Position numbers and translations under genes: made by a program | Part shown: positions 3,335-43,799 of the stretch, piece after piece | Position numbering within the stretch: the stretch's first letter is position 1 | Layout: every line of letters begins with the position of its first letter | Assembly (NCBI GenBank): GCA_043814605.1 | Contig: JBDRJV010000007.1 | Location: 67,354-131,353, forward strand | Length of the DNA stretch: 64,000 nt | Reading direction: 5' to 3' | Source: Candidatus Omnitrophota bacterium | Lineage (GTDB): Bacteria; Omnitrophota; Gorgyraeia; B26-G9 | The notes under the pieces: generated by a model | Told to the model about the DNA's origin: nothing | Databases searched by the model: none | Seen by the model: only the letters and a program-made list of their open reading frames with translations

Positions 3335-3378
3335 ATATAAAATTTAACCTAAAAAATTATAAAGATAGGGAGGTAATA

Positions 3379-5838: not shown

Positions 5839-7630
5839 GGATCAAAATTTTAATACACCGGTTGAGCTTGATGAAATATTATTAAATGTCAGAAAACCTG
5901 CACGTTATATAGGGCAAGAATATAATGCGGTTTATAAAAAACTGAGTTACAAAAATATTAATTTTGCCCTATGCTTTCCGGATAGTTATGAAATTGGTAT
6001 GAGCCATCTGGGTTTAAAAATTCTTTATAATATTTTGAATAAGCAAGAAGATGTTTATGCGCAGCGTTGTTTTTCGCCCTGGCCGGATATGCAGTTGCAA
6101 ATGCAAAAGCAGAACATTAAATTGTTTAGTTTAGAAACACAAACCCCTTTAAATTATTTTGATATAATCGGTTTTTCCCTGCAATATGAACTCGGGTTTA
6201 CCAATGTTTTAGGAATGCTGGATTTAGCGGGTATGGCTTTACACAGCGAGCAAAGAAAAACAGGCCCCTTGGTAATTGCCGGCGGGCCTTGCTGTTTAAA
6301 TCCGGAACCGATGTATAAGTTTATTGATGCTTTTTTTATCGGAGAATCGGAAGAATTGATATTGGAGTTCTTGAATGTATATCGGCAATTCAAAAAAAAA
6401 TTTCTAAATTTTGATAAAAATAATCAGGATGAATTAACCGCACTTAAAATTGAACTTCTGGAACGCATTGCCAGAATCGAAGGTATTTATGTCCCGCGTT
6501 TTTATACGCAGGATTTTAATCATTCATTGGATTTGATCCCGCAAAAATCTTATCTGCCGAAAAAAATTAAAAGAAGGTTTGTCTCGGATCTAAATAATGC
6601 TGAGTATTTTGAAGCGCCTTGCGTCCCTTATGTTGACATTGTGCATGATCGAATCAGTTTAGAAATTATGCGGGGTTGTCCTAACCGTTGTTATTTTTGC
6701 CAGGCAGGATTTACGATTAATCCCCTGCGTATGCGTAGTGTGGAGAACTTAATATCTATGGCCCGTAAAATATATGCAAATACAGGTTATGATAATATAT
6801 CTTTTTGTTCTCTTTCCAGTGCGAATTATCCTCAGCTTAAAAAATTAATTTTAAAAGTGCATGATTTTTTTAAAGAAAAAGGACTGGGGATTTCTTTGCC
6901 TTCATTACGTGTAGATAAAGAATTTTTGAGTGTAATTTCTTTGATTTCTGATCTTAAAAAAACCGGTCTAACGTTTGCCCCTGAGGCAGGCAGTGGGCGT
7001 TTGCGTAAATTGATTAATAAAAATTTAGATATGGAAAAACTTAGCGAAACAATTTTAACTGCCTATCAAACGGGTTGGCGCAGGTTAAAATTATATTTTA
7101 TGATCGGCTTGCCGACTGAGACAGAAACTGATCTTTTAGGAATTGTCCAGATGATTAATGAATATTCAGAATTAAAAAAACAAGTAGATGGCCGGCCGGC
7201 TCGCGTAAGCGTAGGGATTTCTAATTTTATTCCTAAAGCCCATACCCCATTTCAATGGCTGGGGATGGAAAGAAGAGATCAATTAGGAGTTAAACAAAAA
7301 TTTTTACGCGATCGTTTACTAAAAAGAATATTAGATGTGGATTTCCATGATATAGATATGAGTTTTATTGAGGCATGTTTAGCACGGGGCGATAGGAGCA
7401 TGGCTGCGGTAATTGAAAAAGCTTATTTTCTGGGAGCCAGATTTGATGCCTGGACAAATTTTTTTAATTATAATATATGGCAGGAGGCGTTTGAGAAAAC
7501 CGGGTTAAAGGCAGAGCATTATGTGAATGAAGGCTATGCGCTGGATTGTGTTTTACCTTGGGATCATATTGATTGTTTGATTAAAAAAAATGAACTTAAA
7601 CAATATTACACTAATATTAGCACAGTTTAA
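5831..7630 (+). CDS. B12-binding-domain radical SAM protein (TIGR03960-like; function unknown)
   Basis: CxxxCxxC radical SAM motif (CPNRCYFCQAG); N-terminal B12-binding-like region. The ORF track starts at 5732 and overlaps the kinase, so an in-frame GTG at 5831 overlapping the kinase stop is the more plausible start (start uncertain). Confidence 0.75.
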   Translation: MIKDQNFNTPVELDEILLNVRKPARYIGQEYNAVYKKLSYKNINFALCFPDSYEIGMSHLGLKILYNILNKQEDVYAQRCFSPWPDMQLQMQKQNIKLFSLETQTPLNYFDIIGFSLQYELGFTNVLGMLDLAGMALHSEQRKTGPLVIAGGPCCLNPEPMYKFIDAFFIGESEELILEFLNVYRQFKKKFLNFDKNNQDELTALKIELLERIARIEGIYVPRFYTQDFNHSLDLIPQKSYLPKKIKRRFVSDLNNAEYFEAPCVPYVDIVHDRISLEIMRGCPNRCYFCQAGFTINPLRMRSVENLISMARKIYANTGYDNISFCSLSSANYPQLKKLILKVHDFFKEKGLGISLPSLRVDKEFLSVISLISDLKKTGLTFAPEAGSGRLRKLINKNLDMEKLSETILTAYQTGWRRLKLYFMIGLPTETETDLLGIVQMINEYSELKKQVDGRPARVSVGISNFIPKAHTPFQWLGMERRDQLGVKQKFLRDRLLKRILDVDFHDIDMSFIEACLARGDRSMAAVIEKAYFLGARFDAWTNFFNYNIWQEAFEKTGLKAEHYVNEGYALDCVLPWDHIDCLIKKNELKQYYTNISTV

Positions 7631-7665
7631 ACGCGTATGATTATCCGGTAACCTGTTTTAACTGA

Positions 7666-7694
7666 TTGACTTAATTTTAGTTATATGATATAGT
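7666..7694 (+). promoter_or_regulatory. sigma70-like promoter candidate upstream of pilT1 (TTGACT-17 nt-TATAGT)
   Basis: TTGACT at 7666-7671, 17-nt spacer, TATAGT at 7689-7694, ~35 nt upstream of the pilT1 ATG. Confidence 0.4.
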
Positions 7695-7728
7695 TTTTTC
7701 AACATATCAATTAAAAGGAATTAATAAT

Positions 7729-8802
7729 ATGCCGCTAAAATTGAATAATTTATTGAAAATCATGCTCGATAGAGGGGCTTCTGATTTACATATCCATGCT
7801 TATGCTATTCCGCAAATCCGAATAAACTCACAGCTTGTTGCGCTGGATTATCCAGAGTTTACTCCGGAGCAAAGCAAAGATATTGTTTATCCGTACTTAG
7901 CAGAAGATGAAATTAAAGATTTTGAAAAGGATAAAGAACTAGATACTTCCTTTAGCGATGCCGAACTTTCGGCACGCTTTAGAATGAATGTTTTTTATCA
8001 TAAAGGTGGGGTTTGTGCGGCAATCCGGGCAATCCCAAAAAAAATTCCTGATTTTAGTGAATTAGGGTTGCCGGAGCAGCAAATGGTTCAGATTTGCCGC
8101 AGTAAAAGAGGACTGGTCTTAATGACCGGAGCCACAGGCTCAGGTAAGTCCACAACTTTAGCGTCAATAATCAACCGCATAAATGCAGAGCGTAATTGCC
8201 ATATAATTACGGTTGAAGATCCTGTGGAATTTATTTATACTAATAATAAAAGTATTATTACGCAGCGGGAAATTGGCAAAGATACAAATTCTTTTTCCGG
8301 GGCTTTAAAATATATTCTCCGGCAGGACCCGGATGTGATTTTAATTGGAGAGATGAGAGATTTAGAAACAGTGCAAGCGGCAATGAATATGGCGGAAACC
8401 GGGCATTTAGTTTTTGCCACGCTGCATACATCTGATTGTGTTCAAACGATCAACAGAATTATTGATATGTTTCCCTATCAATCACAATCTCAAGCCCGGA
8501 CACAATTATCCTATGTTTTATTATCAACTATTTCGCAGCAGCTTTTAGCTAAATCGGATAATTCCGGTTTATGTTTAGCCAGTGAATTAATGATTGCGAC
8601 TTTCGGGGTACGGGCAATGATTCGGGAAGAAAAGGTACATCAGATATTTTCTCTGATTCAAACCGGATTGAAAGAAGGGATGTATACAATGAATCATTCG
8701 CTTTATGAATTATACAAAAAGGGGTTAATTACTTATCAGGAGGCATCCGCCCACATAACTGATACTCAGGATTTCAAGAGATTTTTTCAAGGTCCAAGAT
8801 AA
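7729..8802 (+). CDS. pilT: type IV pilus retraction ATPase PilT (paralog 1)
   Basis: 357 aa; Walker A GATGSGKSTT; PilT/PilU-family layout without the GspE N-domain or Zn tetracysteine motif. Confidence 0.85.
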   Translation: MPLKLNNLLKIMLDRGASDLHIHAYAIPQIRINSQLVALDYPEFTPEQSKDIVYPYLAEDEIKDFEKDKELDTSFSDAELSARFRMNVFYHKGGVCAAIRAIPKKIPDFSELGLPEQQMVQICRSKRGLVLMTGATGSGKSTTLASIINRINAERNCHIITVEDPVEFIYTNNKSIITQREIGKDTNSFSGALKYILRQDPDVILIGEMRDLETVQAAMNMAETGHLVFATLHTSDCVQTINRIIDMFPYQSQSQARTQLSYVLLSTISQQLLAKSDNSGLCLASELMIATFGVRAMIREEKVHQIFSLIQTGLKEGMYTMNHSLYELYKKGLITYQEASAHITDTQDFKRFFQGPR

Positions 8803-8823
8803 TTTTTTTAAGGATGGTGAAGT

Positions 8824-9231
8824 ATGGAAGAAAAAATTAAAGTATTACTCGTTGATGACGAAGTAGATTTTATTAATATGATGCAGTATTGGCTTAAAAG
8901 TAAGGGGTTTGAAGCAGACTGTCTTTATCAAGGAGATAGCGTAATTGAACAATTAAAGGCAAAAAGCTACAGTATTATGTTTCTGGATTTAAACCTTCCG
9001 GGTTTAAGCGGTATTGAAATATTAACGCGATTAAGGGAGTTTGATAAAACTTTTCCCGTAATAATTTTTAGTGCATTTGGGACAAAAGAAAACTTAAAAC
9101 AAGCTACAAGTTTAGGGATTTCCGGGTTTTTTGCTAAAGAAAGAGGGTTTGAAGAAGCCGCCAGATTAATTCAAACAGCATTAAGAACCCATAAAGGGTT
9201 AACCCATCCAAAAGAAAAAGGGGATAAATAA
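8824..9231 (+). CDS. single-domain CheY-like response regulator (PilH/PilG-like) between the two pilT genes
   Basis: 135 aa; receiver motifs LLVDDE and FLDLNLPG (phospho-acceptor Asp) plus a conserved Lys region; no output domain. Confidence 0.8.
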   Translation: MEEKIKVLLVDDEVDFINMMQYWLKSKGFEADCLYQGDSVIEQLKAKSYSIMFLDLNLPGLSGIEILTRLREFDKTFPVIIFSAFGTKENLKQATSLGISGFFAKERGFEEAARLIQTALRTHKGLTHPKEKGDK

Positions 9232-9232
9232 A

Positions 9233-10297
9233 ATGGCTTTAGAAATGTCAAAATTATTAAAGAATTTAACGGAACGCAGTGGTTCAGATTTACATCTAGG
9301 CGTAAATACTCCGCCGCATTTTCGTATACATGAGAAAATGATTCCGCTGGATTCAAAGGCTTTATCCGCGGCAGAAGTGCGTGATTTAGTTTACAGTATT
9401 TTAAACCCCAGGGATATCGAAAAGTTTGAAAAAGAAAAGGAACTGGACCGATCTTTTGAAATTGAAGGGATGAGCCGGTTTCGTTTAAACGTTTTTTTTC
9501 AAAGAGGATATATCGGATGTGCAATTAGGGTGATCCCGTTTAAAATTCTTACGTTTTCAGAATGCGGTTTGCCGGAGAAAACAATAATTAATTTAGTCAG
9601 AAAGCCCAAAGGTTTAGTTTTGGTAACCGGCGCTACCGGTTCTGGTAAGTCAACAACTTTAGCTTCAATTATTGATCAGATCAATGAAGAAAGGGATTGT
9701 CATATTGTTACTGTGGAAGATCCGATTGAGTTTGTACACAAAAATAAGCAAGCGGTTATTGATCAAAGGGAAGTTGGGCAGGATACGCTCAGTTTTGCTA
9801 ATGCACTAAAGCATGTTTTGCGCCAGGATCCAGACGTCATCTTAGTTGGGGAAATGCGGGATTTAGAAACAATTGAGGCCGCTTTGACCATTGCCGAAAC
9901 CGGTCATCTTGTCTTTGCTACGCTGCATACTTCAGATTCCGTGCAAACAGTAAATAGAATTATTGATGTTTTTCCTTCGCATCAGCAGCAGCAAGTTAGA
10001 ACTCAGCTGTCTTTTGTGCTGCAGGGGATTATTTCTCAGCAATTAATTCCTAAAGTCGGCGGAACCGGCCGGGTATTAGCTTCAGAAATTATGGTTTCAA
10101 CCGCAGCGGTAAAAAGTATGGTGCGAGAGCAGAAAGTGCATCAGATATATTCTCTGATTCAATCCGGGCAAAAAGACGGAATGAGAACAATGAATCAATC
10201 AATATATGAATTATATGCAGAAAAACTAATCACTTATGAAAGTGCAATTGCGCGGTCAACAGATCCGGAAGATTTAATGCGCTTGTTAAAAAGATAA
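9233..10297 (+). CDS. pilT: type IV pilus retraction ATPase PilT/PilU-family (paralog 2)
   Basis: 354 aa; Walker A GATGSGKSTT; ~60% identity by eye to the upstream pilT. Confidence 0.85.
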   Translation: MALEMSKLLKNLTERSGSDLHLGVNTPPHFRIHEKMIPLDSKALSAAEVRDLVYSILNPRDIEKFEKEKELDRSFEIEGMSRFRLNVFFQRGYIGCAIRVIPFKILTFSECGLPEKTIINLVRKPKGLVLVTGATGSGKSTTLASIIDQINEERDCHIVTVEDPIEFVHKNKQAVIDQREVGQDTLSFANALKHVLRQDPDVILVGEMRDLETIEAALTIAETGHLVFATLHTSDSVQTVNRIIDVFPSHQQQQVRTQLSFVLQGIISQQLIPKVGGTGRVLASEIMVSTAAVKSMVREQKVHQIYSLIQSGQKDGMRTMNQSIYELYAEKLITYESAIARSTDPEDLMRLLKR

Positions 10298-10318
10298 TTA
10301 AGAGAAAATATTATAGCC

Positions 10319-10927
10319 ATGAAAAAGTCAAAAACAAAACAAATCGGAGAAATTCTCATTGAAATCGGGCTAATCAGCCAGGAACAATTAGATAAGGCCT
10401 TAGAAGTTCAGTTAAAAGAGGGTGGTCTGCTGGGGCAAATTTTAATTAAACTGGGTTTTGTGACCCAGGAAGAAATGGAAAAAAGTCTTTTTGAACAGAC
10501 AAGCAATGCGCAAAAACTAGAAAATGCTTTAATTGAAGCGAGTATGATTAGTCCGGAGCAATTACAAAAAGCAAAAAAAGTGTTAGCGGAAGAAGGGGGT
10601 TTTTTAATTGAGAAGATTATTCGCCTGGGGTTTTTAGAAGAAGAAGATTTTGTCAGCACTATGGTTACTCAATACGGATTTCCTTATTTACAATTAACAA
10701 ATTATGAGATTGAAGCGGAATTTGTAAAATTAGTGCCCAAGGAAATTGCCAAGAAATATTGCCTGATCCCGATTGATAAAATAGGGAATATCCTTACACT
10801 GGCCATGATTGATCCTCTTAATGCTGCCGCACAGGATGAAATAAGAAAAATTACCGGATTAAATGTAGAAGTTTTTATTTCAACCCTTTCTGATATTAAT
10901 AATGCGATTAATAAATACTACGCTTAA
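10319..10927 (+). CDS. standalone GspE-N-terminal-domain protein with two tandem MshEN-like 24-aa motifs (putative c-di-GMP receptor)
   Basis: Two motifs matching the MshEN pattern: QIGEILIEIGLISQEQLDKALEVQ and LLGQILIKLGFVTQEEMEKSLFEQ. These are followed by a T2SSE_N-like domain (LVPKEIAKKYCLIPIDKIGNILTLAMIDPLNAAAQDEI...). There is no ATPase domain. Confidence 0.6.
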   Translation: MKKSKTKQIGEILIEIGLISQEQLDKALEVQLKEGGLLGQILIKLGFVTQEEMEKSLFEQTSNAQKLENALIEASMISPEQLQKAKKVLAEEGGFLIEKIIRLGFLEEEDFVSTMVTQYGFPYLQLTNYEIEAEFVKLVPKEIAKKYCLIPIDKIGNILTLAMIDPLNAAAQDEIRKITGLNVEVFISTLSDINNAINKYYA

Positions 10928-10951
10928 TTAAATATGATTGAGGCTGTATAA

Positions 10952-12667
10952 ATGATGCAAAGTGTTAAAGACAAAATGCTGGAGGTGTTAACGCGTTCTA
11001 ATTTTTTAACCAAAGAGCAATTGGACGAAGCGATCCTGACACAAAAAAAAACCGGTACGCGTTTGAGTGAAGTTTTAATAACCCTCGGCTATATTTCACA
11101 GCGGGATTTAGTGATTGTATTAAGCCAGAGTTTAAATATCCCCCCGATAAATTTAGCCAAAATGAAGATTAATCCGGAAGTTGTTAAAATTATTCCCCGT
11201 GAGCTTGCCGAAAAATACCAGGCAATAGTAGTTTCTAAAATTGGCAAAATATTAACCATTGCCATGGTTGATCCTTTAAATGTTTTGGCGATTGATGAAT
11301 TAAAAGTATTAACAAACTTTACGCTTAAAATTGTTATTGCTTCAGAAGAGCAGTTAAAAGAAGCGATCAGCAATTATTATAGTGTTACGACGAATGCTCA
11401 GATCCGCGGCATTATTGATGACGTAAAAGATATGGATATTGAAATCATTGAAGACAAACTGGAAAAAGAATTTTCGATCAGTTCGCAGGAATTGTTAAGA
11501 GCGGTAGAAGATGCTCCGGTTGTAAAAATTACAAATTTAATTCTCTCGGAAGCAATAAAACTCAAGGCGAGTGATATTTTAATCGAACCGCAGGAAAAAA
11601 GATTACGGATCCGCTATCGTTTAGATGGTATTTTAAAAGAATTTCCTTCCCCTCCCAAATCAATGCAAGAGGCGATTGTTTCCCGGATTAAGGTTATGTC
11701 TATATTGAACATTGCCGAACATCGCCTGCCGCAGGATGGCCGTTTTAAAATTAAACTGCAAAACCGCGAGGTTGATTTTCGTGTTTCAGTTATGCCGACC
11801 AGCCATGGGGAGAAAGTTGCCTTACGTATTTTAGATAAAACCGTGGTTGTTTTAGATATCGATGCTATGGGATTTGAAGAAGCACCGCTTAAAAAAATAA
11901 AAGAGATTTCTTTAGAACCGCACGGAATGATTCTGATGTGCGGGCCTACCGGCAGTGGTAAGTCAACCACCCTTTACAGTATTCTTAAACATATTGATGA
12001 CCCGGAAAAAAATTTATGCAGTGCGGAAGATCCGGTGGAATATCAATTAAAAGGGATAAACCAGGTAAATGTAAATACAGATGTGGGTTTAACGTTTGCC
12101 GGGTCGCTAAGGTCTTTTTTGCGTCAGGATCCGGATATAATTATGGTCGGGGAAATTCGCGATGTGGAGACTTTAGATATTTCGATTAAAGCAGCCTTAA
12201 CCGGTCATTTAGTTTTGAGTACATTACATACGACTGAGGCAGCGGGTGCCATAACCCGAATGGTAAATATGGGGATAGAACCTTTTTTAATTACATCCTC
12301 ATGCCTTCTGGTATGTGCACAGCGTTTAATTCGAAGAATTTGTCCGGATTGTAAAGAACCCTATCCCATTACCGAAGAGCTGCGGAAAGATTTTAAAATT
12401 CCGGCGAATTACAAAGAACTGTATCGAGGCAAAGGCTGTGCTAAGTGCGAAAAAACGGGATATCGGGGCAGGATTGGTTTATGTGAAGCTTTAGTGTTAA
12501 CCCCGGCAATTCGTGATTTAATTATGGAGCGGGTGCAGGAAAATGTGCTTAAAGCCAAAGCCCGGGAAGAGGGCATGAGCACTTTACGCGAAAACGGAGT
12601 GAAAAAAGCAATAAGAGGCATTACCACAATTGAAGAAGTAACCAGGCTAACTGTGGACGATGATTAA
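10952..12667 (+). CDS. pilB: type IV pilus assembly ATPase PilB/GspE family (paralog 1)
   Basis: 571 aa; N-terminal MshEN-like motif (RLSEVLITLGYISQRDLVIVLSQS) and GspE-N domain; Walker A GPTGSGKSTT; tetracysteine Zn motif CPDCK...CAKCEKTGYRGR. Confidence 0.88.
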   Translation: MMQSVKDKMLEVLTRSNFLTKEQLDEAILTQKKTGTRLSEVLITLGYISQRDLVIVLSQSLNIPPINLAKMKINPEVVKIIPRELAEKYQAIVVSKIGKILTIAMVDPLNVLAIDELKVLTNFTLKIVIASEEQLKEAISNYYSVTTNAQIRGIIDDVKDMDIEIIEDKLEKEFSISSQELLRAVEDAPVVKITNLILSEAIKLKASDILIEPQEKRLRIRYRLDGILKEFPSPPKSMQEAIVSRIKVMSILNIAEHRLPQDGRFKIKLQNREVDFRVSVMPTSHGEKVALRILDKTVVVLDIDAMGFEEAPLKKIKEISLEPHGMILMCGPTGSGKSTTLYSILKHIDDPEKNLCSAEDPVEYQLKGINQVNVNTDVGLTFAGSLRSFLRQDPDIIMVGEIRDVETLDISIKAALTGHLVLSTLHTTEAAGAITRMVNMGIEPFLITSSCLLVCAQRLIRRICPDCKEPYPITEELRKDFKIPANYKELYRGKGCAKCEKTGYRGRIGLCEALVLTPAIRDLIMERVQENVLKAKAREEGMSTLRENGVKKAIRGITTIEEVTRLTVDDD

Positions 12668-12688
12668 AAATCAGGGTCAATTATAAAT

Positions 12689-14410
12689 ATGCGCAGAGCA
12701 AAAAAAAGACTGAATGAACTTTTATTAGATTATAATTTAATTGAAGAAAAGGAAGTTGTCCGGGCTTTAGAATTACAGCGTAAGCGGGGTGTGCCTTTAG
12801 CCACAATTTTAGTCGAGGAAAAATTTGTTAAAGAAGAAGATGTGGTTAGTTGTTTTTGCCGGCATTTAAATATTCCTCCGATTACTTTAGCAAAATTTTA
12901 TGGAGCCGAAAAAATTATTAAATTGATTCCCGAACACATTGCCCGGCATTACCGTTTACTTTGTGTTTCTCAGATGGGGAGAATGTTGACTGTGGCGATG
13001 TGTGATCCTTTAAATGTATTAGCAATTGATGATATCAAAGCTTTAACCGGATACGAGGTAACTCCGGTTGTTGCTGGCTTAGCGGATATGAAATTAGCTT
13101 TAGACAGATTTTATCTGGGAAAAGTTGAAGAAATTAAGCCGGAGCAGTCGTTTGATGAATTAGTAAAAGGTTTAGACAGTGAAGATATTGAGATAGTGAG
13201 TAATCAGTCTCAGATTGATATTGGCGAGGTTATTCGTTCCAGCAGTGAAGCACCGATAGTTAAAATTATTGATGCTTTAATTGCGGAATCTTTAATAAAA
13301 AGGGCTTCGGATATTCACATTGAGCCTTATGAAGATGAAATTCGGGTAAGATACCGCATTGACGGCGCGTTAATGCAAGCGGCAGTATTACCGAAAAAAA
13401 TTCAAAACGCTGTTGCCGCCAGACTTAAGATTATGTCTAATTTAGATATTACCCAAAGATTAGTGCCTCAGGACGGCAGGTTTAAAGTAAGGCTGGAGGA
13501 AAAAGAGGTTGATTTTCGTGTTTCAGTTTTGCCGATAAGTTTTGGGGAAAAGGTTGTTATGCGGGCTTTAGATAAATCGAATTTAAGTATTGGGCTGGAA
13601 GCTTTAGGTTTTCTGCCTCAGGCAATGGAGGCATTTCAATATGCGGTAACCCGGCCTTACGGAATGATTTTAGTGACCGGACCCACAGGTTCGGGTAAGT
13701 CAACAACACTTTACTCTGTTTTAAATAAATTAAACAACCCGGAGCGAAATATTATTACGATTGAAGACCCGGTTGAGTATCAGGTTGAGGGGATTACTCA
13801 GGTTCAGGTTAAACCGGACATCGGGCTTACTTTTGCCACAGGGTTACGTTCAATTTTACGGCAAAATCCGGATATTTTAATGGTAGGAGAAATCCGTGAT
13901 TTTGAAACCGCAGATATTGCGGTTAAGGCAGCTTTAACCGGGGCTTTGCTTTTAAGTACATTGCATACCAATGATGCACCGGGAGCAATAACCCGTCTTA
14001 TTGATATGGGGATTGAACCGTTTCTAATTTCCAGCAGTGTAATTGCGGTTGCTGCGCAGAGATTAGCGCGTAAGGTTTGTGCAGCTTGTAAAGAACCGCT
14101 TGAAATACCGCAAGCAGTATTAGACCGTTTAGGCATAAAACTGGATGCAAAAAAAATAAAAGCGTTTAAAGGCAAAGGTTGTGATAAATGTAGTGGCAGC
14201 GGGTACCGGGGCAGGTTTGCGATTTTAGAAGTTATGATTGTAACCGATGCAGTCCGGGAAATGATTATGAAGCGATGCTCGAGTGATGAAATTAAAAGAT
14301 ATGCCCGGAAAGAATTAGGCATGCTTACATTACGGGATACAGGGATTGAAAATTTTATCAGGGGCCAGACGACACTGGAAGAAGTATTAAGAGTAACATC
14401 GAGTGAATGA
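12689..14410 (+). CDS. pilB: type IV pilus assembly ATPase PilB/GspE family (paralog 2)
   Basis: 573 aa; Walker A GPTGSGKSTT; tetracysteine CAACK...CDKCSGSGYRGR; N-terminal GspE-N domain with a degenerate MshEN motif. Confidence 0.88.
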   Translation: MRRAKKRLNELLLDYNLIEEKEVVRALELQRKRGVPLATILVEEKFVKEEDVVSCFCRHLNIPPITLAKFYGAEKIIKLIPEHIARHYRLLCVSQMGRMLTVAMCDPLNVLAIDDIKALTGYEVTPVVAGLADMKLALDRFYLGKVEEIKPEQSFDELVKGLDSEDIEIVSNQSQIDIGEVIRSSSEAPIVKIIDALIAESLIKRASDIHIEPYEDEIRVRYRIDGALMQAAVLPKKIQNAVAARLKIMSNLDITQRLVPQDGRFKVRLEEKEVDFRVSVLPISFGEKVVMRALDKSNLSIGLEALGFLPQAMEAFQYAVTRPYGMILVTGPTGSGKSTTLYSVLNKLNNPERNIITIEDPVEYQVEGITQVQVKPDIGLTFATGLRSILRQNPDILMVGEIRDFETADIAVKAALTGALLLSTLHTNDAPGAITRLIDMGIEPFLISSSVIAVAAQRLARKVCAACKEPLEIPQAVLDRLGIKLDAKKIKAFKGKGCDKCSGSGYRGRFAILEVMIVTDAVREMIMKRCSSDEIKRYARKELGMLTLRDTGIENFIRGQTTLEEVLRVTSSE

Positions 14411-14498
14411 TTAATTATTAATCTTTATTTTTAATTTTTTTAGAATATAATATAATCATAAAATAAAATTTAAAACATTAATTTATAAGGAGGATTTA

Positions 14499-15704
14499 AT
14501 GCCGCTATTCAAATATGAAGCAAAGGATGAGCAGGGTAATTCGGTAAATGATACAATTGAAGCAAAAGATCAACTGGTTGCTTTGGATATGCTGCGGGTT
14601 AAAAACCTGGTAATTATTTCGATCAGCGAAATTCAAAAGGCAAAGGGAGCAGCTAAAGTCAGCTCAAAAAAAATTAAACCAGATGAACTGGTTATTTTTT
14701 CCCGGCAATTAGCAACGATGGTTAATGCGGGTATTCCGCTGGTGCAAAGTTTGGATATTTTAAGTGAGCAGATGGAAAGTCCTTCTTTTCAGCATGTAGT
14801 TGCTACAGTACGCAGTGATGTGGAAGCAGGTTCTAGTTTATCCGCAGCTTTAGAAAAACACCCCAAGGTTTTTACGATGTTGTACACAAATATGGTAAGG
14901 GCTGGGGAAACAAGCGGTATGTTAGATGAGATTTTAGACCGTTTAGCTGGTTATTTAGAAAAAACCGGCCAGCTGCAAAGAAAAGTTAAATCAGCGATGG
15001 TTTATCCGGCAGTTGTATCATTAATGGCAGTCGCGATTACTCTCGTATTATTATTAAAAGTTATTCCGACTTTTAAAGAAATCTTTTCAACTCTAGGAGG
15101 TACTTTGCCATTGCCCACACAGATTTTAATCGGTATATCCGATACTTTAAGAGCGTATTTTGTTTATGCAGTAGCTCTATTAATTGCTTTTGGTTTTGCG
15201 ATGATTAAACTTGTACAGACTCCCAAAGGTAAAGAAAGATTTGATCAATTGAAGCTGAATTTGCCTGTATTTGGTATTTTATTAAGGAAAGTGGCTGTAG
15301 CCCGGTTTTCGCGGACTCTTTCTACGCTTATTCGGAGCGGCGTGCCGATTTTAGGTGCATTAGAGATTGTAGGAAAAACAGCGGGTAATGTTGTTATTGA
15401 AGCTGCGGTTGAGAGTGCCAGAGTAGGAATCAGGGAAGGTGAAAGCATTTCTGCTCCTTTAGCCAAGAGCAAGGCATTTCCTCCCATGGTAACAAGGATG
15501 ATTTCAGTAGGTGAAGAATCTGGAGAACTGGAAAAAATGCTTTCTAAAATTGCAGATTTTTATGAAGACCAGGTGGATGCTGCAGTGAGCGGGTTAACCA
15601 GCTTAATTGAACCATTAATCATTGCGTTTTTAGGTATAGTTGTGGGTTCGATTGTTATTGCTATGTTTCTGCCTATATTTAAGATTACAGAACTTATTGG
15701 GTAG
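14499..15704 (+). CDS. pilC: type IV pilus inner-membrane platform protein PilC (GspF family)
   Basis: 401 aa; duplicated T2SSF domains with three TM segments; follows pilB. Confidence 0.88.
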   Translation: MPLFKYEAKDEQGNSVNDTIEAKDQLVALDMLRVKNLVIISISEIQKAKGAAKVSSKKIKPDELVIFSRQLATMVNAGIPLVQSLDILSEQMESPSFQHVVATVRSDVEAGSSLSAALEKHPKVFTMLYTNMVRAGETSGMLDEILDRLAGYLEKTGQLQRKVKSAMVYPAVVSLMAVAITLVLLLKVIPTFKEIFSTLGGTLPLPTQILIGISDTLRAYFVYAVALLIAFGFAMIKLVQTPKGKERFDQLKLNLPVFGILLRKVAVARFSRTLSTLIRSGVPILGALEIVGKTAGNVVIEAAVESARVGIREGESISAPLAKSKAFPPMVTRMISVGEESGELEKMLSKIADFYEDQVDAAVSGLTSLIEPLIIAFLGIVVGSIVIAMFLPIFKITELIG

Positions 15705-15757
15705 CATAATATCTTGTGAATTAATAAGTTAAAATTAATAAATATTTTTCAAAAGTC

Positions 15758-15786
15758 TTGACGAAGTTTATTTGTTAATGTATACT
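15758..15786 (+). promoter_or_regulatory. sigma70-like promoter (TTGACG-17 nt-TATACT with TG immediately upstream of the -10)
   Basis: TTGACG 15758-15763, 17-nt spacer, TATACT 15781-15786; ~55 nt upstream of the riboswitch-like element. Confidence 0.55.
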
Positions 15787-15844
15787 TTAAATAGAGGCAA
15801 TATATGCATTTTTCTTATATTAGCCCTTTACAGCTGAAAAAATC

Positions 15845-15975
15845 GAAAAAGGCAAACCTGTTGAAAAACAGGGACTCCCGCCAATGGCGGGATCCTGCTG
15901 CAGTTTAGGCAGGAGCAAAGCCGCGGGTCTAAAGGCGATCCTCATAGACAGCCGGGTTACCGAAGCAAAGGGGAA
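15845..15975 (+). ncRNA. c-di-GMP-I (GEMM)-like riboswitch aptamer candidate in the 5' leader of the minor-pilin operon
   Basis: GEMM hallmark segments occur in the canonical order. GGCAAACC (15851-58) is followed by a 6-bp hairpin capped by a GAAA tetraloop (CCUGUU-GAAA-AACAGG). GCAAAGCC lies at 15915-22. CUAAA ... CCGGGUUACCGAAG lies at ~15929-15965. Two extra small hairpins sit between the first and second conserved blocks. Confidence 0.5.
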
Positions 15976-15984
15976 AACCAATGA

Positions 15985-16026
15985 TAGCCGAGCTACCGAA
16001 AAAAAGGTAGTGCGGCTATTTTTTTT
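15985..16026 (+). terminator. intrinsic terminator / putative riboswitch expression platform
   Basis: Imperfect inverted repeat TAGCCGAGCTACC ... GGTAGTGCGGCTA followed by a T8 tract that ends 14 nt before the pilin ATG. Confidence 0.55.
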
Positions 16027-16040
16027 ATGGGGTGAATTAA

Positions 16041-16502
16041 ATGAAAAATAAAAGCGGTTTTACTTTAATTGAGATTTTAGTTTCAGTAGGTATTTTGGCT
16101 ATAGCCTTAACCTCAACCCTACAAATCCTGAAATTTTTAAATGATCTGACTGAGCAAAATAATATTTCTGTAATTTGCACAAATCATAGCGAAGGGATTA
16201 TCAGCGCAATAAGAAACCTAAATTTTGATGATGTTATTTCAGCCTATGATGGCCGGACATTCACAATCCCGGAATTAACAGCTTTAAATATTAATCACAG
16301 CGGATTGATCAGGGCAAATGAAATCGAAGCAAATTTTTTGATCCGGGTTAAAGTTGTTGTCTGCTATCAGCAGAAAAACCGTTTTTTTGGTGAGGATATT
16401 AATTTTAATAATCTTTTAGATAGCGGTGAAGACCTGAATAATAACGGAGAAATAGATTCACCCTGTACTTTTGAAACTGTGATTGTAGATACGGAAAGAT
16501 AA
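16041..16502 (+). CDS. type IV minor pilin / pseudopilin (PilV/FimT-like) with prepilin N-terminal methylation motif
   Basis: N-terminus KSGFTLIEILVSVGILAIAL, i.e. a G|FTLIE prepilin peptidase site plus hydrophobic helix; 153 aa. Confidence 0.8.
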   Translation: MKNKSGFTLIEILVSVGILAIALTSTLQILKFLNDLTEQNNISVICTNHSEGIISAIRNLNFDDVISAYDGRTFTIPELTALNINHSGLIRANEIEANFLIRVKVVVCYQQKNRFFGEDINFNNLLDSGEDLNNNGEIDSPCTFETVIVDTER

Positions 16503-16508
16503 TCAAAA

Positions 16509-17198
16509 ATGAGGCATAAAATGAAATTAATCCCTAAAATAAAATTTAATAAGCAGGGTTTTACAATAATGGAAGCAATCATTTCTTCGAGTATTTTTGC
16601 CGTTGTTATCGGCTCGTTATTTGCAATGCTGATTATTCAAAATAATTTTTTTCAAACTGTAAATGCCAGGACAGACATGTCGCAGACAGCCCGCAAGGTG
16701 ATGAATAATATGGTTAAAGAATTGCGCATTTCTAAAATTGAATCTGTTGATCTTTATGCTCGTCCCCTGCACATCAGCGGAACTGAGGATACTATTAATG
16801 CCACAAGTATTTGTTTTCAAATACCGGTTGATTCTAATCCCGGAGACGGAAATTATAATTTTTTTGATGAATTCGGCCGGGTTGTATGGGGTGCGGATAA
16901 TGTGGATGGTTATAAAATCGAGTATTATTGGGATCAAGAAAATCAGCGGATTTTAAGACGGGTTTGGGATGCATCAGATACCGCTGTTTATGAGAATGTA
17001 ATTGCCGAGAATATTACCGGGTTTCGTATGCAGGGATTTAGCTGGAATTCAGGGGCGCAAACCTATGAATCTAAATCAGGCGGGCCATGCGATGTAGTGG
17101 AAATCACAGTAACTGCGGAAAAAACAAATTTAGGCGGCCGCACTCTGGAAATGCCTATTGTCTATACATTAAAAAACCAGGTTACCTGGCGCAATTAA
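16509..17198 (+). CDS. type IV minor pilin (PilW-like) with prepilin N-terminal domain
   Basis: KQGFTIMEAIISSSIFAVVIG (G|FT.ME class III signal); 229 aa. Confidence 0.75.
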   Translation: MRHKMKLIPKIKFNKQGFTIMEAIISSSIFAVVIGSLFAMLIIQNNFFQTVNARTDMSQTARKVMNNMVKELRISKIESVDLYARPLHISGTEDTINATSICFQIPVDSNPGDGNYNFFDEFGRVVWGADNVDGYKIEYYWDQENQRILRRVWDASDTAVYENVIAENITGFRMQGFSWNSGAQTYESKSGGPCDVVEITVTAEKTNLGGRTLEMPIVYTLKNQVTWRN

Positions 17199-17223
17199 AC
17201 TTTATAAATATAAAGGAGGCGTA

Positions 17224-19962
17224 ATGATGAAGATAGGGAAAAATCAAAAAGGAACTATGCTGATTGCAACCTACATTGTATTATTTGTGGTTATTGTGGT
17301 TGCAGGTTCATATTTTGCTCTTTCTGTAAACAATAATCAAGCAATACTCAAGGAATCAGAAGGCTCAAAAGCATTGAGTTATGCGGAACGCGGTTTAGCC
17401 TATGCTTTTTATGAGTCCTATATTTCCGGCTGGAACTGGTATACGCATAATTGGAATGAAGATAAAAGCCAGCTTTCTCAGTTACCAACAACTGATCAAC
17501 AGATCGCGCGTACAGATTGTTTTTTTAATACAGATGGTTTTTATGAACATGCCAGCGGTGATTTTATGGTCAAAGCATATCCGGATACAACAAGAGAAAA
17601 TGATACAATTGTGCTTTGTAAAGGCAGATACGGCAAAGAGGAAAGAGTTTTAATGCTTTATTTATCCCGCCAGGGCATATATGATTATTTTGTTTATTCG
17701 CCGTATACTTTAGATTTATCACAAGCAGTTGGTGATGATCCCAAGATAAATGGCGGAGGTATTCATAGTAACGGTGATATTATCTTAGAATACGATACAC
17801 GGCTTGAGAATATTTCAGAATTTAGTGCAGGTAAAGATGGCAGTATATATTATGCGTGTACTCAGTATCAGCCGCCGTATATTGCGGATAAGTTTGATGG
17901 AATTATGGATGGCCAGGCGCCGATTCCGCGATTAAGTGATCTTAGTGATTTATACCGGGATGACCGAATTTCTTATTCCGGGCCGTTTGGTTATTATAAG
18001 AATAAAATATGGACTTATAAAACCGATGCTAGCAAATTTGTCTATGACAATATGGATGGCTGGCCAACAGATTCTTTTTTAAATACAGAAAGAAAATTTT
18101 GCGGTAATAATGAAGATCGATATTTGGTAGAGGTTTATCCCGGAGTATTTTATAATGACTATAATACTTGGATAAAACCCTACAGATTGGACGAAGAAGG
18201 TAATCAGATTGAAACAACCTGGTCACAAATTCCTGCGGAGTTGGATGAAGAATGGGCCTGGAGTAAATACGATGATACAAAGGACAAGCCGGGTTACGGA
18301 GCGGCTGTGGATGAGGTTCCGATAGAATTTTATATTCCGGGTGAAGAGAATACAAGGATTATGGTAAATGATACTTACTGGGAAATTAAGGATGATAAGG
18401 TTATTCAGCTTACGCCACCTGCTGTAGGTGATGTTGCGGGTTGGGAAACATTTTATGCTGAGCATCCAAATGCAGCTAAATATTGGGAGATGTTTCAAAG
18501 CCCGGAATTTTGGGATTGTGTTAAAGACGATAGTTTCATCGCAACTTATTTAAATCCGGAAATTGCTGATGGCCGCTATGGAGATGACCGCAGCAACGGA
18601 GGTACAATTTTAGTTAAACACACGAATTCCATGAAGCAGCCCAATGCCTGGCGTCAATTTATAAGCGAGCAGGGGTTAGAAGATATTGTATTTGAGGGTA
18701 ATACCGGCGGAATGTATCTTGAGCCGCCGTGTTTTTCAGTTACATATAGAAACCTTGCAGATAAAGATGGTTTACATATTAAAGCAATTGATGATTCAAT
18801 ACCTGCAGATTATTGGGCATGGAAAGATAAAATGATCGCAAGTATTGATGCTGCAGTTGAAGATATTAATACCCGAGCCGGAGGCAAAGTAGCAGAGAAA
18901 AAAGGTTTTTATAATACTTTTACGAGTAAATGGGTAACGGTATTAGAGCTGGACCTTGAGGCAATGCAGACCTATAATGTGCATCCGAATAATGGCGTGC
19001 TTTATAGTGAGGTGCCGATCAGATTAGTTAATGCCGAAAGGCTGCCGCGTTCAAAACCAAAATACGGGTTTACTGTGCTCTGTGAGGAAAATATTTTCTT
19101 GCAAGGAGATTATAATATTAAAGATAAAGTGGGTGAGTTTGAAACAGAAAATGAATGGGTAACTAGTGCGGTGATTACGAAAAAAAGAGTTTATACGTTT
19201 TCGGATGATTTTTCAGATCCGCAGCATATTCCGGCAACAGAAAATTACCCGAATTATCCTGGACTTTATGTAAAAGAGGTTGATGGAAAATGGGTGGAAG
19301 TTCCGGAATCAACCAAAGGCGGTACGTGGGTGCTAAATTATTTGTTAACTCCTAATGATCCTAAGGAAGATAATTATCGCGAAATTTCGTATGATGAAGA
19401 AGCAAAATTAAAAACGATAATTAAAGCAAAAAACAAGGCCTATCAATCTGTATTTAATGCTTATCAAACAAAAGAAACAAATGATGCCACAGCAACCTGG
19501 GTTTGGGCAGACTCAGGCACAACTTTAACTCAAGGCCTGAAACCGAATAAAGTGACTCAAGATCAGACTTATAATTGTTTGATTGCGGCAAACCGCTGGC
19601 TGGATTATTCTTATTTAAACCGCGGTTGTATTTTAGAAAACTGGGAGTACGGGGATAATCATTTTTACCGCAATTTAAATGGCGCTTATTTTGTTTTAGA
19701 AAAAGAAGGTTTTACAGCGAGTAGTGATGAATTTGTTGATCTTGAAAGCAAGTCCCTTGCGCTTAAGTATCGGGGGAAGTATAACCCCACATATAATGAA
19801 TATTTTATGGTGGATTCTTCTGCATATTGGGCACCGACAAATATTGCCTATGATGTGGCTTTTCGAACCAGAGTCCGGTCTCCGTCAGATGTGTTTATGG
19901 GCGGGGCGCAGTCGATTTGGATTGAAGCCAGCTGTGATTTATTTTATCAGATGAATTTTTAA
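17224..19962 (+). CDS. large PilX-N-terminal-domain protein (putative pilus tip/minor-pilin-associated adhesin)
   Basis: 912 aa. The N-terminus (NQKGTMLIATYIVLFVVIVVAGSYFALSVNNNQAILKESEGSKALSYAERGL) matches the PilX_N pattern (QxGxxLIxxL hydrophobic helix ... AxxxAEAGL). The rest is a large W/Y/D-rich extracellular region with no recognisable catalytic motif. Confidence 0.6.
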   Translation: MMKIGKNQKGTMLIATYIVLFVVIVVAGSYFALSVNNNQAILKESEGSKALSYAERGLAYAFYESYISGWNWYTHNWNEDKSQLSQLPTTDQQIARTDCFFNTDGFYEHASGDFMVKAYPDTTRENDTIVLCKGRYGKEERVLMLYLSRQGIYDYFVYSPYTLDLSQAVGDDPKINGGGIHSNGDIILEYDTRLENISEFSAGKDGSIYYACTQYQPPYIADKFDGIMDGQAPIPRLSDLSDLYRDDRISYSGPFGYYKNKIWTYKTDASKFVYDNMDGWPTDSFLNTERKFCGNNEDRYLVEVYPGVFYNDYNTWIKPYRLDEEGNQIETTWSQIPAELDEEWAWSKYDDTKDKPGYGAAVDEVPIEFYIPGEENTRIMVNDTYWEIKDDKVIQLTPPAVGDVAGWETFYAEHPNAAKYWEMFQSPEFWDCVKDDSFIATYLNPEIADGRYGDDRSNGGTILVKHTNSMKQPNAWRQFISEQGLEDIVFEGNTGGMYLEPPCFSVTYRNLADKDGLHIKAIDDSIPADYWAWKDKMIASIDAAVEDINTRAGGKVAEKKGFYNTFTSKWVTVLELDLEAMQTYNVHPNNGVLYSEVPIRLVNAERLPRSKPKYGFTVLCEENIFLQGDYNIKDKVGEFETENEWVTSAVITKKRVYTFSDDFSDPQHIPATENYPNYPGLYVKEVDGKWVEVPESTKGGTWVLNYLLTPNDPKEDNYREISYDEEAKLKTIIKAKNKAYQSVFNAYQTKETNDATATWVWADSGTTLTQGLKPNKVTQDQTYNCLIAANRWLDYSYLNRGCILENWEYGDNHFYRNLNGAYFVLEKEGFTASSDEFVDLESKSLALKYRGKYNPTYNEYFMVDSSAYWAPTNIAYDVAFRTRVRSPSDVFMGGAQSIWIEASCDLFYQMNF

Positions 19963-20003
19963 TAAGTTAATAAGTTTAATTATAACTAGTGGGGAGGGGA
20001 GAA

Positions 20004-20447
20004 ATGGATAATAAAGTCAGGATCACTTTAATTACTGCAGTTGTGATTTTAGTGATTATCATTACCCTGGGGCTTAGGGATGTGTTTAAAACCGCAACTG
20101 TGGCAACAGAAAAAAACCAATCTGAGTTAACATCAGATGACCGAAGAATTAGTTATCAGGAGAGGGAAAATGCACCAAAAATAAAAGCAAAAGCAACGCT
20201 CAGTTCAGACGAGTTGTATTTTCCTAAAAAAGATAAACCGGATAAAGTCGATCCAGAGGCAATAAGTAAGGTTAAGCATGCGGCGGAAAATTCTTTAGAT
20301 CCTGAGCAGGTTAATACACCTGTTGCAATCAGGGCAGATTCAGATGAGCTGCGCTTGCCGGAAGGGGTGGACACGCTGGATGCGGATATTTATTTGGATG
20401 CAGAAGGTAATCTGATTATCTCAAATAATCCGCAGAAAAAAATTTAA
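20004..20447 (+). CDS. hypothetical N-terminally membrane-anchored protein (pilus-locus associated)
   Basis: Strong RBS GGGGAGGGGAG before the ATG at 20004 (the tracked ORF begins at an upstream GTG, 19989); single TM then a charged extracytoplasmic region. Confidence 0.5.
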   Translation: MDNKVRITLITAVVILVIIITLGLRDVFKTATVATEKNQSELTSDDRRISYQERENAPKIKAKATLSSDELYFPKKDKPDKVDPEAISKVKHAAENSLDPEQVNTPVAIRADSDELRLPEGVDTLDADIYLDAEGNLIISNNPQKKI

Positions 20448-23477: not shown

Positions 23478-23537
23478 TTGAATTAGTATGGACTTTAACT
23501 ATTTGTTAACGGAATTTTGAAGAAGGGGGTGTTTATT

Positions 23538-24575: not shown

Positions 24576-24908
24576 TTTCATTTTAGTTGAGTTATCTTAT
24601 TTGGTTGCGCAGAGATAGAATCTAAAATTATTAAAAATATATTGACAAAATTGTCTAAATTATAATATTATATATATACTTAAAATAAATGGATTTGTTC
24701 AGGGAACAAGGAGGTGTTATTTGCTAAGGTCTAATATTTCTGCATTTTTCCATATCCAGGGTGTAACTTCTAGTTTTACTGGGGCAATTTTTTACTCTGC
24801 TGCCTATCGTCAAAAAATCCATTACACAGAAATTCAATCCAAAAAAAAAGACGCTTTGTTGGTTTTTTGGGGAGGAGTAAGCCGGCAAAAAAAAGAGAAT
24901 AATTATTT

Positions 24909-27883: not shown

Positions 27884-27892
27884 GATAAATTT

Positions 27893-43739: not shown

Positions 43740-43764
43740 TAAGCGGATTTATTTAGTTAATTAA

Positions 43765-43798: not shown

Positions 43799-43799
43799 G

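Follow-up and report, generated by a model that had tools for sequence, protein, structure and literature searches.

A stand-alone MshEN gene beside paired PilB and PilT ATPase genes in a type IVa pilus cluster of Omnitrophota

Type IVa pili are abundant in the Omnitrophota (PMC10066038). These ultra-small bacteria are predicted to attach to or prey on cells, and the pili are thought to be central to this (PMC10066038). Here we consider the pilus genes of a Candidatus Omnitrophota bacterium in a window of 64,000 nucleotides (nt), by which we mean the whole stretch of DNA analysed (contig JBDRJV010000007.1 of assembly GCA_043814605.1, positions 67,354 to 131,353 of the forward strand; coordinates below count from its first letter). 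The motor genes of the pilus lie at 7729–15704. They encode two PilT-family retraction ATPases, PilT1 and PilT2, with a receiver protein between them, two PilB-type extension ATPases, PilB1 and PilB2, the platform protein PilC and, between pilT2 and pilB1, a protein of 202 amino acids (aa) that has the features of an MshEN domain and no others. The predicted role of this small protein as a receptor for cyclic di-GMP (c-di-GMP), and its relation to the two extension ATPases, are our main subject. We infer binding, enzyme activity and protein contacts throughout the locus from sequence.

The motor gene block and its conservation

All long open reading frames (ORFs) of the motor region are on the plus strand. 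The block opens with PilT1 (7729–8802, 357 aa), a divergent PilT-family retraction ATPase paralog that scores 434.9 bits on TIGR01420, the PilT/PilU family model, for which the curated cut-off is 319.1 bits. A receiver-only response regulator (8824–9231, 135 aa; PF00072, 82.7 bits) separates it from PilT2 (9233–10297, 354 aa), a canonical PilT with 477.8 bits on the same family model. The stand-alone MshEN gene comes next (10319–10927), its product matching PF05157 with 73.7 bits and NF053729, the NCBIfam model of the c-di-GMP motif, with 75.9 bits over two stretches against a cut-off of 38 bits. PilB1 (10952–12667, 571 aa) and PilB2 (12689–14410, 573 aa) each combine a T2SSE match of ~1e-138 with PF05157, and the block closes with the only PilC of the cluster (14499–15704, 401 aa; T2SSF, 226 bits; PilC NCBIfam models, ~449 bits). 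The genes are 1–24 nt apart, with 88 nt ahead of pilC. A consensus scan for promoters and terminators over 3000–17000 placed its best plus-strand promoter-like site, TTGACT-17-TATAGT with a TG, in the gap directly upstream of pilT1 (7666–7694; a candidate only), and found no terminator-like site in the gaps within 7729–15704, which rules out obvious terminators only: sites of this kind were not more numerous than in shuffled sequence, and the scan missed the terminator of the riboswitch described below. The motor block is likely to be a single operon.

An initial annotation of the region had described paralogous pairs of both motor classes in one co-directional block, with a receiver between the pilT genes. 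This description stands, its six gene boundaries being exact and the TIGR01420, T2SSE and PF00072 matches agreeing with its assignments, and the arrangement is indeed richer than pilB-pilT-pilC; what it overlooked is the seventh gene, that for the 202-aa MshEN protein. Its further suggestion that the paralogs are functionally distinct also holds up, in that they are ancient and diverged rather than near-identical duplicates: PilT1 and PilT2 are 56% identical and PilB1 and PilB2 45% (pairwise), and each copy has orthologs in 69 genomes, which rules out an assembly artefact or a recent duplication. In the window the small gene, pilB1 and pilB2 share one reading frame, with gaps of 24 and 21 nt. 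Across the surveyed loci, the small gene is in frame with pilB1 in 22/80 and pilB1 with pilB2 in 24/68, about one third in each case, and this lack of frame bias excludes a split gene, a frameshift artefact or programmed read-through.

Comparison with PilB, PilT, PilU and GspE references resolves the four motors into two of PilB type and two of PilT type. Against Geobacter PilB, PilB1 scores 563 bits and PilB2 564; against Myxococcus PilB the values are 553 and 549, and against GspE/EpsE ~420 for both. An identity of either copy as the GspE of a type II secretion system is ruled out by this difference (~563 versus ~420 bits). On TIGR02538, the PilB equivalog model, the two score 635.8 and 644.8 bits, slightly under the cut-off of 675.65 bits, as expected for a distant phylum, and the GspE model gives lower values (597 and 590). 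TfpB was also considered and is ruled out for both, with 455.0 bits for PilB1 and 441.3 for PilB2 on NF053534 against a cut-off of 850 bits. The setting is that of a pilus extension motor, with PilC directly downstream and PilM, PilO, PilQ, pilins and PilS/PilR in the same cluster.

The wider conservation of this arrangement was surveyed with an alignment of the small MshEN protein as query, taking one genome per species. This gave 80 loci, all of them in Omnitrophota metagenome-assembled genomes, some deposited with other labels. ORFs were called in the window and 86 related loci and classified by phmmer against the window's proteins. The order MshEN-only gene, pilB1, pilB2, pilC was found in nearly every locus with enough flanking sequence (~80 loci), often with one pilT directly upstream, and both PilB copies are present in 69/69 genomes in which both positions are visible. 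The median gap is 15 nt between the small gene and pilB1 and 12 nt between pilB1 and pilB2, with many overlaps of 1–4 nt. In a neighbour-joining tree of 150 PilB proteins rooted on PilT, all 69 first-position proteins fall in one clade and all 69 second-position proteins in another. A bootstrap run that included 24 generic PilB representatives recovered the PilB1 clade in 94/100 and the PilB2 clade in 100/100 replicates, and the two as sisters in 36/100. Since the two positions separate into two clades across the loci, the PilB duplication is, on this tree, at least as old as the sampled Omnitrophota. In the literature searched, the coverage of which was incomplete, neither a tandem PilB pair nor a stand-alone MshEN gene is described for the phylum.

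The two clades also differ at one position of the His box. Both conserve Walker A, the Asp box, Walker B with the catalytic Glu, the second histidine of the His box and the zinc cysteines (CxxC...CxxC). PilB1 has the full set of catalytic motifs, with a His box reading TGH, and PilB2 has all except the first histidine of this box. All 69 of the 69 PilB1 proteins have histidine there. Of the 69 PilB2 proteins, 57 have Q, 5 have A, 4 have E and 2 have H, the window's own residue being A419. Among the 150 best representatives, TGQ is almost restricted to PilB2-clade proteins. The corresponding residue of Geobacter PilB is H413, which together with H420 encloses T411 where the packing units meet; H420 also contacts the gamma-phosphate (PMC5424180). 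Judged by these residues, PilB1 and PilB2 both look catalytically competent, and PilB2 looks active yet altered at a coupling residue.

The stand-alone MshEN protein and the PilB N-domains

The MshEN motif was defined as two copies of RLGxx(L/V/I)(L/V/I)xxG(L/V/I)(L/V/I)xxxxLxxxLxxQ with a 5-residue joint, in which the backbone amides of the glycine at position 3 bind guanine and Gln24 binds the ribose-phosphate (PMC5013675). It was later widened to allow R/K/L at position 1, and leucine at this position of motif II goes with an affinity of 6 nM in the GSPII-B domain of Thermus PilF (PMC11731258). In the 202-aa protein the motif reads QIGEILIEIGLISQEQLDKALEVQ-LKEGG-LLGQILIKLGFVTQEEMEKSLFEQ. 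Scored over 22 key positions in the best 53-residue window, a procedure that gives a median of 9/22 for shuffled sequences, it keeps 20/22, including all four glycines. The motif pair, the NF053729 score of about twice the cut-off and the predicted fold are all those of an MshEN domain, and the deviation is a glutamine at position 1 of motif I.

The contrast with the PilB N-domains is sharp across the phylum. The comparison covered 95 small proteins, 69 PilB1 and 69 PilB2 proteins (69 Omnitrophota genomes). Of the small proteins, 99% have the position-3 glycine in motif I and 99% in motif II; for PilB1 the two values are 1% and 10%, and for PilB2 1% and 17%. The median motif scores of the three groups are 18, 16 and 14 of 22. 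Although the small proteins are otherwise only ~40–70% identical, Q24 of motif I is kept in 96% of them; the family conserves G10, Q31 and G39, and 81/95 have leucine at position 1 of motif II. Hydrophobic core positions are retained in all three groups and the position-3 glycines are gone from the two PilB groups, from which it follows that the PilB N-domains retain the fold of the sensor and not its site.

The window's own PilB proteins conform to this pattern. PilB1 keeps 15/22 positions, with L and S at position 3 and Q24 in motif I only, and scores 47.5 bits on NF053729. PilB2 keeps 13/22, with N and A at position 3 and Asn and Lys at position 10, and its 36.7 bits fall under the cut-off of the model. 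The contact residues are thus defective in both N-domains. The initial annotation had called the motif good in copy 1 and degenerate in copy 2, and had proposed that c-di-GMP acts differentially through the two. The difference in score is real; the verdict of a good motif in copy 1 is not borne out, neither copy having the position-3 glycines, and differential input through the two N-domains finds no support in the frequencies of these glycines in both clades. Its identification of c-di-GMP as an input to the locus was nevertheless sound, and rests on different parts: the stand-alone MshEN protein, a riboswitch and a GGDEF cyclase. From its motif, the separate 202-aa gene product is predicted to be the c-di-GMP receptor of the motor operon.

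An AlphaFold2 model of this protein (pLDDT 86.7) has four-helix bundles at residues 9–62 and 67–119 and an alpha/beta domain at 121–202, that is, tandem MshEN_N bundles followed by MshEN_C. Its top Foldseek match is MshEN with c-di-GMP (5HTL), and the best matches also include the GSPII domains of PilF, XpsE-N and the Xanthomonas PilB-N/PilZ complex; the C-terminal half has weaker matches to the GspL-binding N1 domain of EpsE/GspE (2BH1, 4PHT; E 0.1–1.4). By sequence, the best match in the PDB is Thermus PilF, with 134.8 bits over four stretches, and residues 5–61 align to the binding site of GSPII-B, including the leucine at position 1 of motif II. The C-terminal half is homologous to the whole N-terminal region of the PilBs (34% identity with PilB1, 29% with PilB2). 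Most Omnitrophota have a small protein of ~150 aa with one bundle, and it is in the window's clade that a second, degenerate bundle has been inserted, which in the window keeps 13/22 positions. The window's small protein is 100% identical to one encoded on a 264-kb contig of a Candidatus Omnitrophota metagenome-assembled genome. Databases label the stand-alone family 'hypothetical protein' or, wrongly, 'PilB', and its recognition would be a cheap gain for annotation.

A natural fusion bears on the partner of the small protein. P0174 (765 aa; 8001–10298 of locus L169), found with PilB2 as query among 1.84 billion representatives, joins a homolog of the small protein at its N-terminus to an ATPase through a low-complexity linker of ~45 residues rich in Gly, Lys and Asn. 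The ATPase belongs to the PilB1 clade, scoring 798 against the PilB1 and 665 against the PilB2 clade hidden Markov model (HMM), and its His box reads TGH. The next gene on the contig is of the PilB2 clade (797 versus 692; TGQ), and pilC follows. To judge from this one example, the small protein may act in cis with PilB1 and serve as an additional sensor domain ahead of the motor, as in PilF. In about 11 loci (L015, L024, L029, L056, L059, L068, L075, L079, L081, L083 and L084) a second stand-alone MshEN gene, encoding 142–171 aa with a well-kept motif, lies between pilB2 and pilC.

Retraction genes, riboswitch, cyclase and the wider cluster

PilT1 scores 356–360 bits to characterised PilT proteins (356 to that of Geobacter) and 257 to PilU, and PilT2 scores 455 to Geobacter PilT and 278 to PilU. 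The characteristic C-terminal motif of PilT is of the AIRNLIRE type, and it reads GVRAMIRE in PilT1 and AVKSMVRE in PilT2; both proteins are PilT rather than PilU, and an identity of PilT1 as PilU, which we considered, is ruled out (356 versus 257 bits). PilT2 is the ortholog of the PilT that adjoins the module in ~25 other loci (57–66% identity), and PilT1 is 50–57% identical to the single PilT of other Omnitrophota. PilT1 and the receiver are found beside the module only in the window's own clade, represented by the related loci L001, L003 and L008, where they accompany the 202-aa tandem-bundle form of the small protein.

The receiver has the residues of a single-domain response regulator (D11, D12, D55, S83 and K105). 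Its best matches are generic, of Spo0F, NtrC and OmpR type, and give no support for orthology with CheY, PilG or PilH; within the window there is no gene for CheA, CheW or a methyl-accepting chemotaxis protein. The receiver gene ends 1 nt from pilT2, and in L001 the two genes overlap. Upstream of the motor block, on the plus strand, Pfam matches define a cytoplasmic PAS-HisKA-HATPase histidine kinase (3379–5838) and a syntenic radical SAM protein (5732–7630; Radical_SAM_N2 and Radical_SAM), and the order kinase, radical SAM, PilT1, receiver, PilT2 is kept in L001 and L003. On grounds of synteny the kinase is a candidate partner of the receiver. A segment of ~90 aa occurs twice in the N-terminal half of the kinase (KDIVGMVSEFLSG...KAPKV and KDIVGMVSDFFSG...NAPMV), with a coiled-coil-like stretch between the copies. 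If read from the TTG listed for it, the radical SAM ORF shares 106 nt with the 3′ end of the kinase gene (5732–5838); its orthologs, of 572–587 aa, are 45–60 aa shorter, and the true start is probably further downstream. Genes for MreD, PBP2 and RodA precede the kinase.

Between pilC and the first of the minor-pilin genes lies a c-di-GMP-I (GEMM-I) riboswitch aptamer (15841–15964, plus strand; RF01051, 50.3 bits, E = 7e-7, gathering score 35 bits), which is the sole Rfam match in a scan of the whole window and ends 77 nt before the minor-pilin start codon. Its score, its place in a 5′ leader and its expression platform are all those of a c-di-GMP-I riboswitch. The platform is an intrinsic terminator (15983–16027, plus strand; stem 15983–16018 and U8), after which come a ribosome-binding site and the ATG at 16041. 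A promoter-like site from the consensus scan, TTGACG-17-TATACT, is a candidate only and lies upstream of the aptamer (15758–15786, plus strand). The core, GGCAAACC, keeps the G that we take to mark c-di-GMP-selective aptamers. L001 and L003 have the same riboswitch at the same site, the best-scoring model in L003 being the GGC variant, and both keep the terminator hairpin and U-tract although bases in either side of the stem have changed. Because the aptamer's 3′ strand is similar to the 5′ arm of the terminator, it could pair with the terminator's 3′ arm in the absence of ligand, which suggests, as a weak inference, that this is probably an OFF switch. A further c-di-GMP-I riboswitch (63.1 bits) occurs a few kb from the motor module, and on the opposite strand to it, in L009, which belongs to a more distant Omnitrophota genome (6467–6552, minus strand).

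The remainder of the cluster is also on the plus strand. Four genes of 153, 229, 912 and 152 aa follow the riboswitch (16041–20447), the first two with a pilin N-methylation motif. The 912-aa protein (17224–19962) has no Pfam match, and genes for 907–965 aa occupy its position in L001, L003, L167 and L168; it may be a tip or adhesin component of the priming complex. Its N-terminus is hydrophobic and pilin-like. Next are a PilS-like histidine kinase (20477–21784; 6TM_PilS, HisKA, HATPase), a sigma-54 PilR-like response regulator (21816–23171; assigned from its translation and the Pfam context of orthologs) and two major-pilin-like genes of 163 and 156 aa (23517–24008 and 24105–24575), with a class III signal and FTLVEI and with orthologs annotated N_methyl. 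Beyond the cyclase described below come a PilM-like protein (561 aa), PilO, a 156-aa gene that is possibly PilP-like and the secretin PilQ (26198–30462; profile matches), and housekeeping genes lie beyond PilQ. With one PilC, one set of PilM, PilO and secretin, one minor-pilin set and a PilS/PilR pair, the cluster is one complete type IVa pilus machine that has two extension and two retraction ATPases.

Between the pilins and pilM lies a gene for a membrane-anchored GAF-GGDEF diguanylate cyclase (24909–26186; PF00990, 161.8 bits). Its active site, GGEEF, and its RxxD I-site are intact (...RLTDLVARYGGEEF...), and it is the putative local source of c-di-GMP. Contigs carrying the small protein in its 202-aa form also encode orthologs with 49–65% identity, and in both of the contexts examined the ortholog (49–54% identity) likewise lies between the pilins and pilM; searched against metagenomes, the cyclase matched only generic GGDEF domains of 35–47% identity. 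In L167 a 62-aa MerR/HTH_17 gene (7800–7988) stands between the pilins and the cyclase, and the window has no equivalent ORF at 24576–24908.

Some other features of the window may be recorded here. The 'symbiotic' F-type ATPase reported beside Omnitrophota pilus clusters (PMC10066038) does not occur within the window. An orphan pilin-like gene (53010–53405, 131 aa) with an N-methylation motif lies between the genes for elongation factor G and a YebC-family protein, ~23 kb from the cluster. A run of small paralogous genes occupies 58626–60471, possibly extending to 62226; two of them match DUF2378, and further ORFs of 126–190 aa follow. Finally, ~1.4 kb at 43740–45211 has no ORF of ≥110 aa and no Rfam or tRNA match, and falls in a low-GC window (0.33) where the GC skew is 0.03 as against ~0.2 elsewhere.

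Control of the extension motors

That c-di-GMP controls this locus is strongly supported, and control is probably exerted by a trans-acting sensor, a riboswitch and a local cyclase, not by PilB N-domains that differ in their response. The single set of PilC, PilM, PilO and secretin, together with the PilB character of both extension ATPases, argues for two motors on one machine, not for two machines. We therefore favour, with rather more confidence than doubt, a model in which the block is the motor operon of one machine with a trans-encoded MshEN sensor and two PilB motors. In this model the c-di-GMP sensor that is normally part of PilB would have moved onto a separate small protein, the motif being kept there and lost in both PilBs. 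The ligand of the small protein is probably c-di-GMP supplied by the cluster's own GAF-GGDEF cyclase, and its docking site is probably PilB1, for which it would serve as a regulatory N-domain that can come off, much as if Thermus PilF had been split in two; it would thereby determine when or how the extension motors engage the PilC/PilM platform. PilB1 and PilB2 probably share the work of extension on the same machine, in the manner of PilB and TfpB of Acinetobacter baylyi. The same ligand would act on RNA as well, through the riboswitch and terminator that would control transcription of the minor-pilin, or priming, genes. The window's clade appears to have added a second layer, made up of the divergent PilT1, an orphan kinase upstream and a receiver that could be phosphorylated and whose translation would be coupled to that of PilT2; this layer probably lets a two-component signal bias retraction.

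Several points weigh against this model or limit its reach. The small protein was the bait for the 80 loci, which makes the conservation of its own gene partly circular. Position 1 of motif I is mostly glutamine in the small proteins, outside both the strict and the relaxed published motifs, and in V. cholerae MshE residue R9 was important. With 47.5 bits, PilB1 is above the cut-off of the NCBIfam motif model (38 bits), and may have some residual binding of c-di-GMP. The P0174 fusion is known from one 50%-identity cluster, on one contig and in one lineage, and the second MshEN genes beside pilB2 and pilC may mean that the partner of the small protein is perhaps not PilB1 alone. Four parts, namely the riboswitch, the PilT1–receiver pair, the tandem MshEN_N bundles and (as far as the sampled contigs show) the cyclase, belong to the window's clade only, and ten more distant Omnitrophota loci have no riboswitch between PilC and the minor pilins; these parts of the model do not, therefore, generalise to the phylum.

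Other readings of the same genes have to be set against our model. PilB1 and PilB2 could be subunits of one obligate heterohexameric extension motor for which the small MshEN protein is a detachable sensor, a reading that we regard as possible, if doubtful. Both copies are kept in a fixed order in all 69 genomes with both positions visible, and such tight or overlapping spacing is common among genes for subunits that are translated together into a complex. Catalytic residues are retained in both, and the histidine replaced in PilB2 is the one that packs against T411 at an inter-subunit contact in Geobacter PilB (PMC5424180). A precedent of a kind is offered by a set of ~1000-aa proteins (P0159, P0160, P0162, P0164, which is KKU82539.1, and P0166–P0171), one cluster of which is named Parcubacteria group bacterium. 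Each contains two complete PilB ATPase cores in one chain, every core having an N2D and a C-terminal domain (CTD), Walker A and B and a His box, and they make rings of two different PilB cores plausible. It is conceivable, though we are inclined to doubt it, that Omnitrophota have a heterohexameric PilB ring with a remodelled PilB2 His box and a detachable c-di-GMP N-domain, of which the double PilBs of Parcubacteria would be the covalent version. The double proteins are, however, not orthologous to PilB1 and PilB2 (the difference in clade-HMM score is ~0), and the characterised PilB, PilT and PilU are homohexamers (PMC6821130; PMC11656802). Moreover, it is to PilB1, not PilB2, that the small protein is fused, and a second sensor adjoins PilB2 in some lineages, a combination that suggests separate regulation of each motor. 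If a mixed ring did exist, no hetero-oligomeric extension ATPase of a type IV pilus would have been documented before it.

The role of the small protein could also be different from the one we propose. It might be a decoy or inhibitor, tuned by c-di-GMP, that competes with PilB for a docking site on PilM or PilC. We consider this unlikely: the natural fusion in L169 points to action in cis with the motor, and co-translation with the motors in apparently fixed stoichiometry would be odd for an inhibitor. The homology of its C-terminal half to the PilB N-terminal region (34% and 29%) would suit a competitor, and small trans-acting inhibitors of PilB are known in CpiA and phage Aqs1/Tip (PMC8213720, PMC11656802); the same half also resembles the EpsE/GspE N1 domain that binds GspL, the counterpart of PilM/N (2BH1, 4PHT), but these structural matches are the weak ones noted above. 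Less probable still is that it binds no nucleotide and survives as a purely structural adaptor after a multi-domain PilB resembling PilF was split. The glutamine in most proteins at position 1 of motif I in place of R/K/L, the leucine instead of arginine at position 1 of motif II and the degenerate second bundle of the window protein (13/22) could be taken in that sense. The contact residues are nevertheless near-invariant in 95 sequences (99% have the position-3 glycine of each motif and 96% the Q24 of motif I), the motif II leucine is the high-affinity state in Thermus PilF GSPII-B (PMC11731258), and a cyclase and a c-di-GMP riboswitch stand in the same cluster. A similarly low probability attaches to the proposal of the initial annotation that the two PilBs and PilTs drive distinct pilus modes or filaments, with c-di-GMP discriminating between them through their own N-domains. 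V. cholerae does use separate motors for separate pili (PMC11656802), the cluster has two major-pilin-like genes and PilB1 exceeds PilB2 on the motif model. Yet L168, with the same motor set, has a single pilin gene at that place, PilB1 and PilB2 are equally PilB-like, there is one PilC, one PilM/O/Q set and one minor-pilin set, and the ligand-contacting glycines are gone from both N-domains throughout the phylum.

Comparison with characterised systems places our model of one machine, two PilB motors and a detached sensor among several known themes. V. cholerae MshE (5HTL), M. xanthus PilB and C. perfringens PilB2 share with the Omnitrophota protein the fold, the motif of 24+5+24 residues and the tie to a pilus extension ATPase. 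In MshE-type proteins, however, the sensor is the N-terminus of the ATPase itself, whereas in Omnitrophota it is a separate polypeptide and the N-domains of the ATPases lack the contact glycines; position 1 of motifs I and II is Arg/Arg in the former and Gln/Leu in the small protein. The PilF of Thermus thermophilus, with three GSPII domains in cis, likewise stacks binding and degenerate units before a PilB core (PMC11731258), but it is a single chain with one ATPase. In Omnitrophota the extra unit has its own gene, being fused in the L169 lineage only, and there are two ATPase paralogs.

A further parallel is Acinetobacter baylyi, in which PilB and TfpB are two extension motors for one pilus and the inhibitor CpiA is a small protein that controls the motor (PMC8213720, PMC11656802); in Omnitrophota, too, two PilB-family motors apparently serve one machine. 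There are differences: the Omnitrophota copies are adjacent, lie within the PilB-type radiation and are kept wherever both positions can be observed, and the small protein, unlike CpiA, is a paralog of the PilB N-domain. A review of PilB regulation lists as open questions why there are several PilB homologs and whether extension ATPases form mixed rings (PMC11656802). With its paralogs side by side in fixed order, the locus is a natural system for the former question, and its products of interest, four ATPases and one small protein, are ordinary soluble ones that could be expressed and tested although the organisms are uncultured. In the FimX-PilZ-PilB system of Xanthomonas and Pseudomonas, a trans-acting c-di-GMP receptor also acts through the N-terminal domain of PilB (PMC8389850). 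The receptor types are unrelated, a degenerate EAL protein with a PilZ adaptor in that system and MshEN in Omnitrophota, and no PilZ or FimX gene is present in the pilus cluster.

On the retraction side, Pseudomonas PilT/PilU with PilG/PilH also pairs two PilT-family ATPases with receivers, and the Omnitrophota receiver is encoded beside its ATPases. The likeness ends there: PilT1 is not PilU-like, the receiver has no kinship with CheY, PilG or PilH, and there is no Chp-type operon in the window. Riboswitches for c-di-GMP are known upstream of pilus genes, with a class II aptamer before pilA1 in Clostridioides difficile and GEMM-I in Vibrio and Geobacter, and these likewise place a c-di-GMP-sensing leader and a terminator on pilus genes. 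Gating by c-di-GMP at three levels, those of cyclase, protein receptor and riboswitch, would bear on the switch between free and attached states in Omnitrophota. The Omnitrophota riboswitch differs from the known examples in being a class I aptamer before minor-pilin genes that stands alongside a protein receptor and a cyclase.

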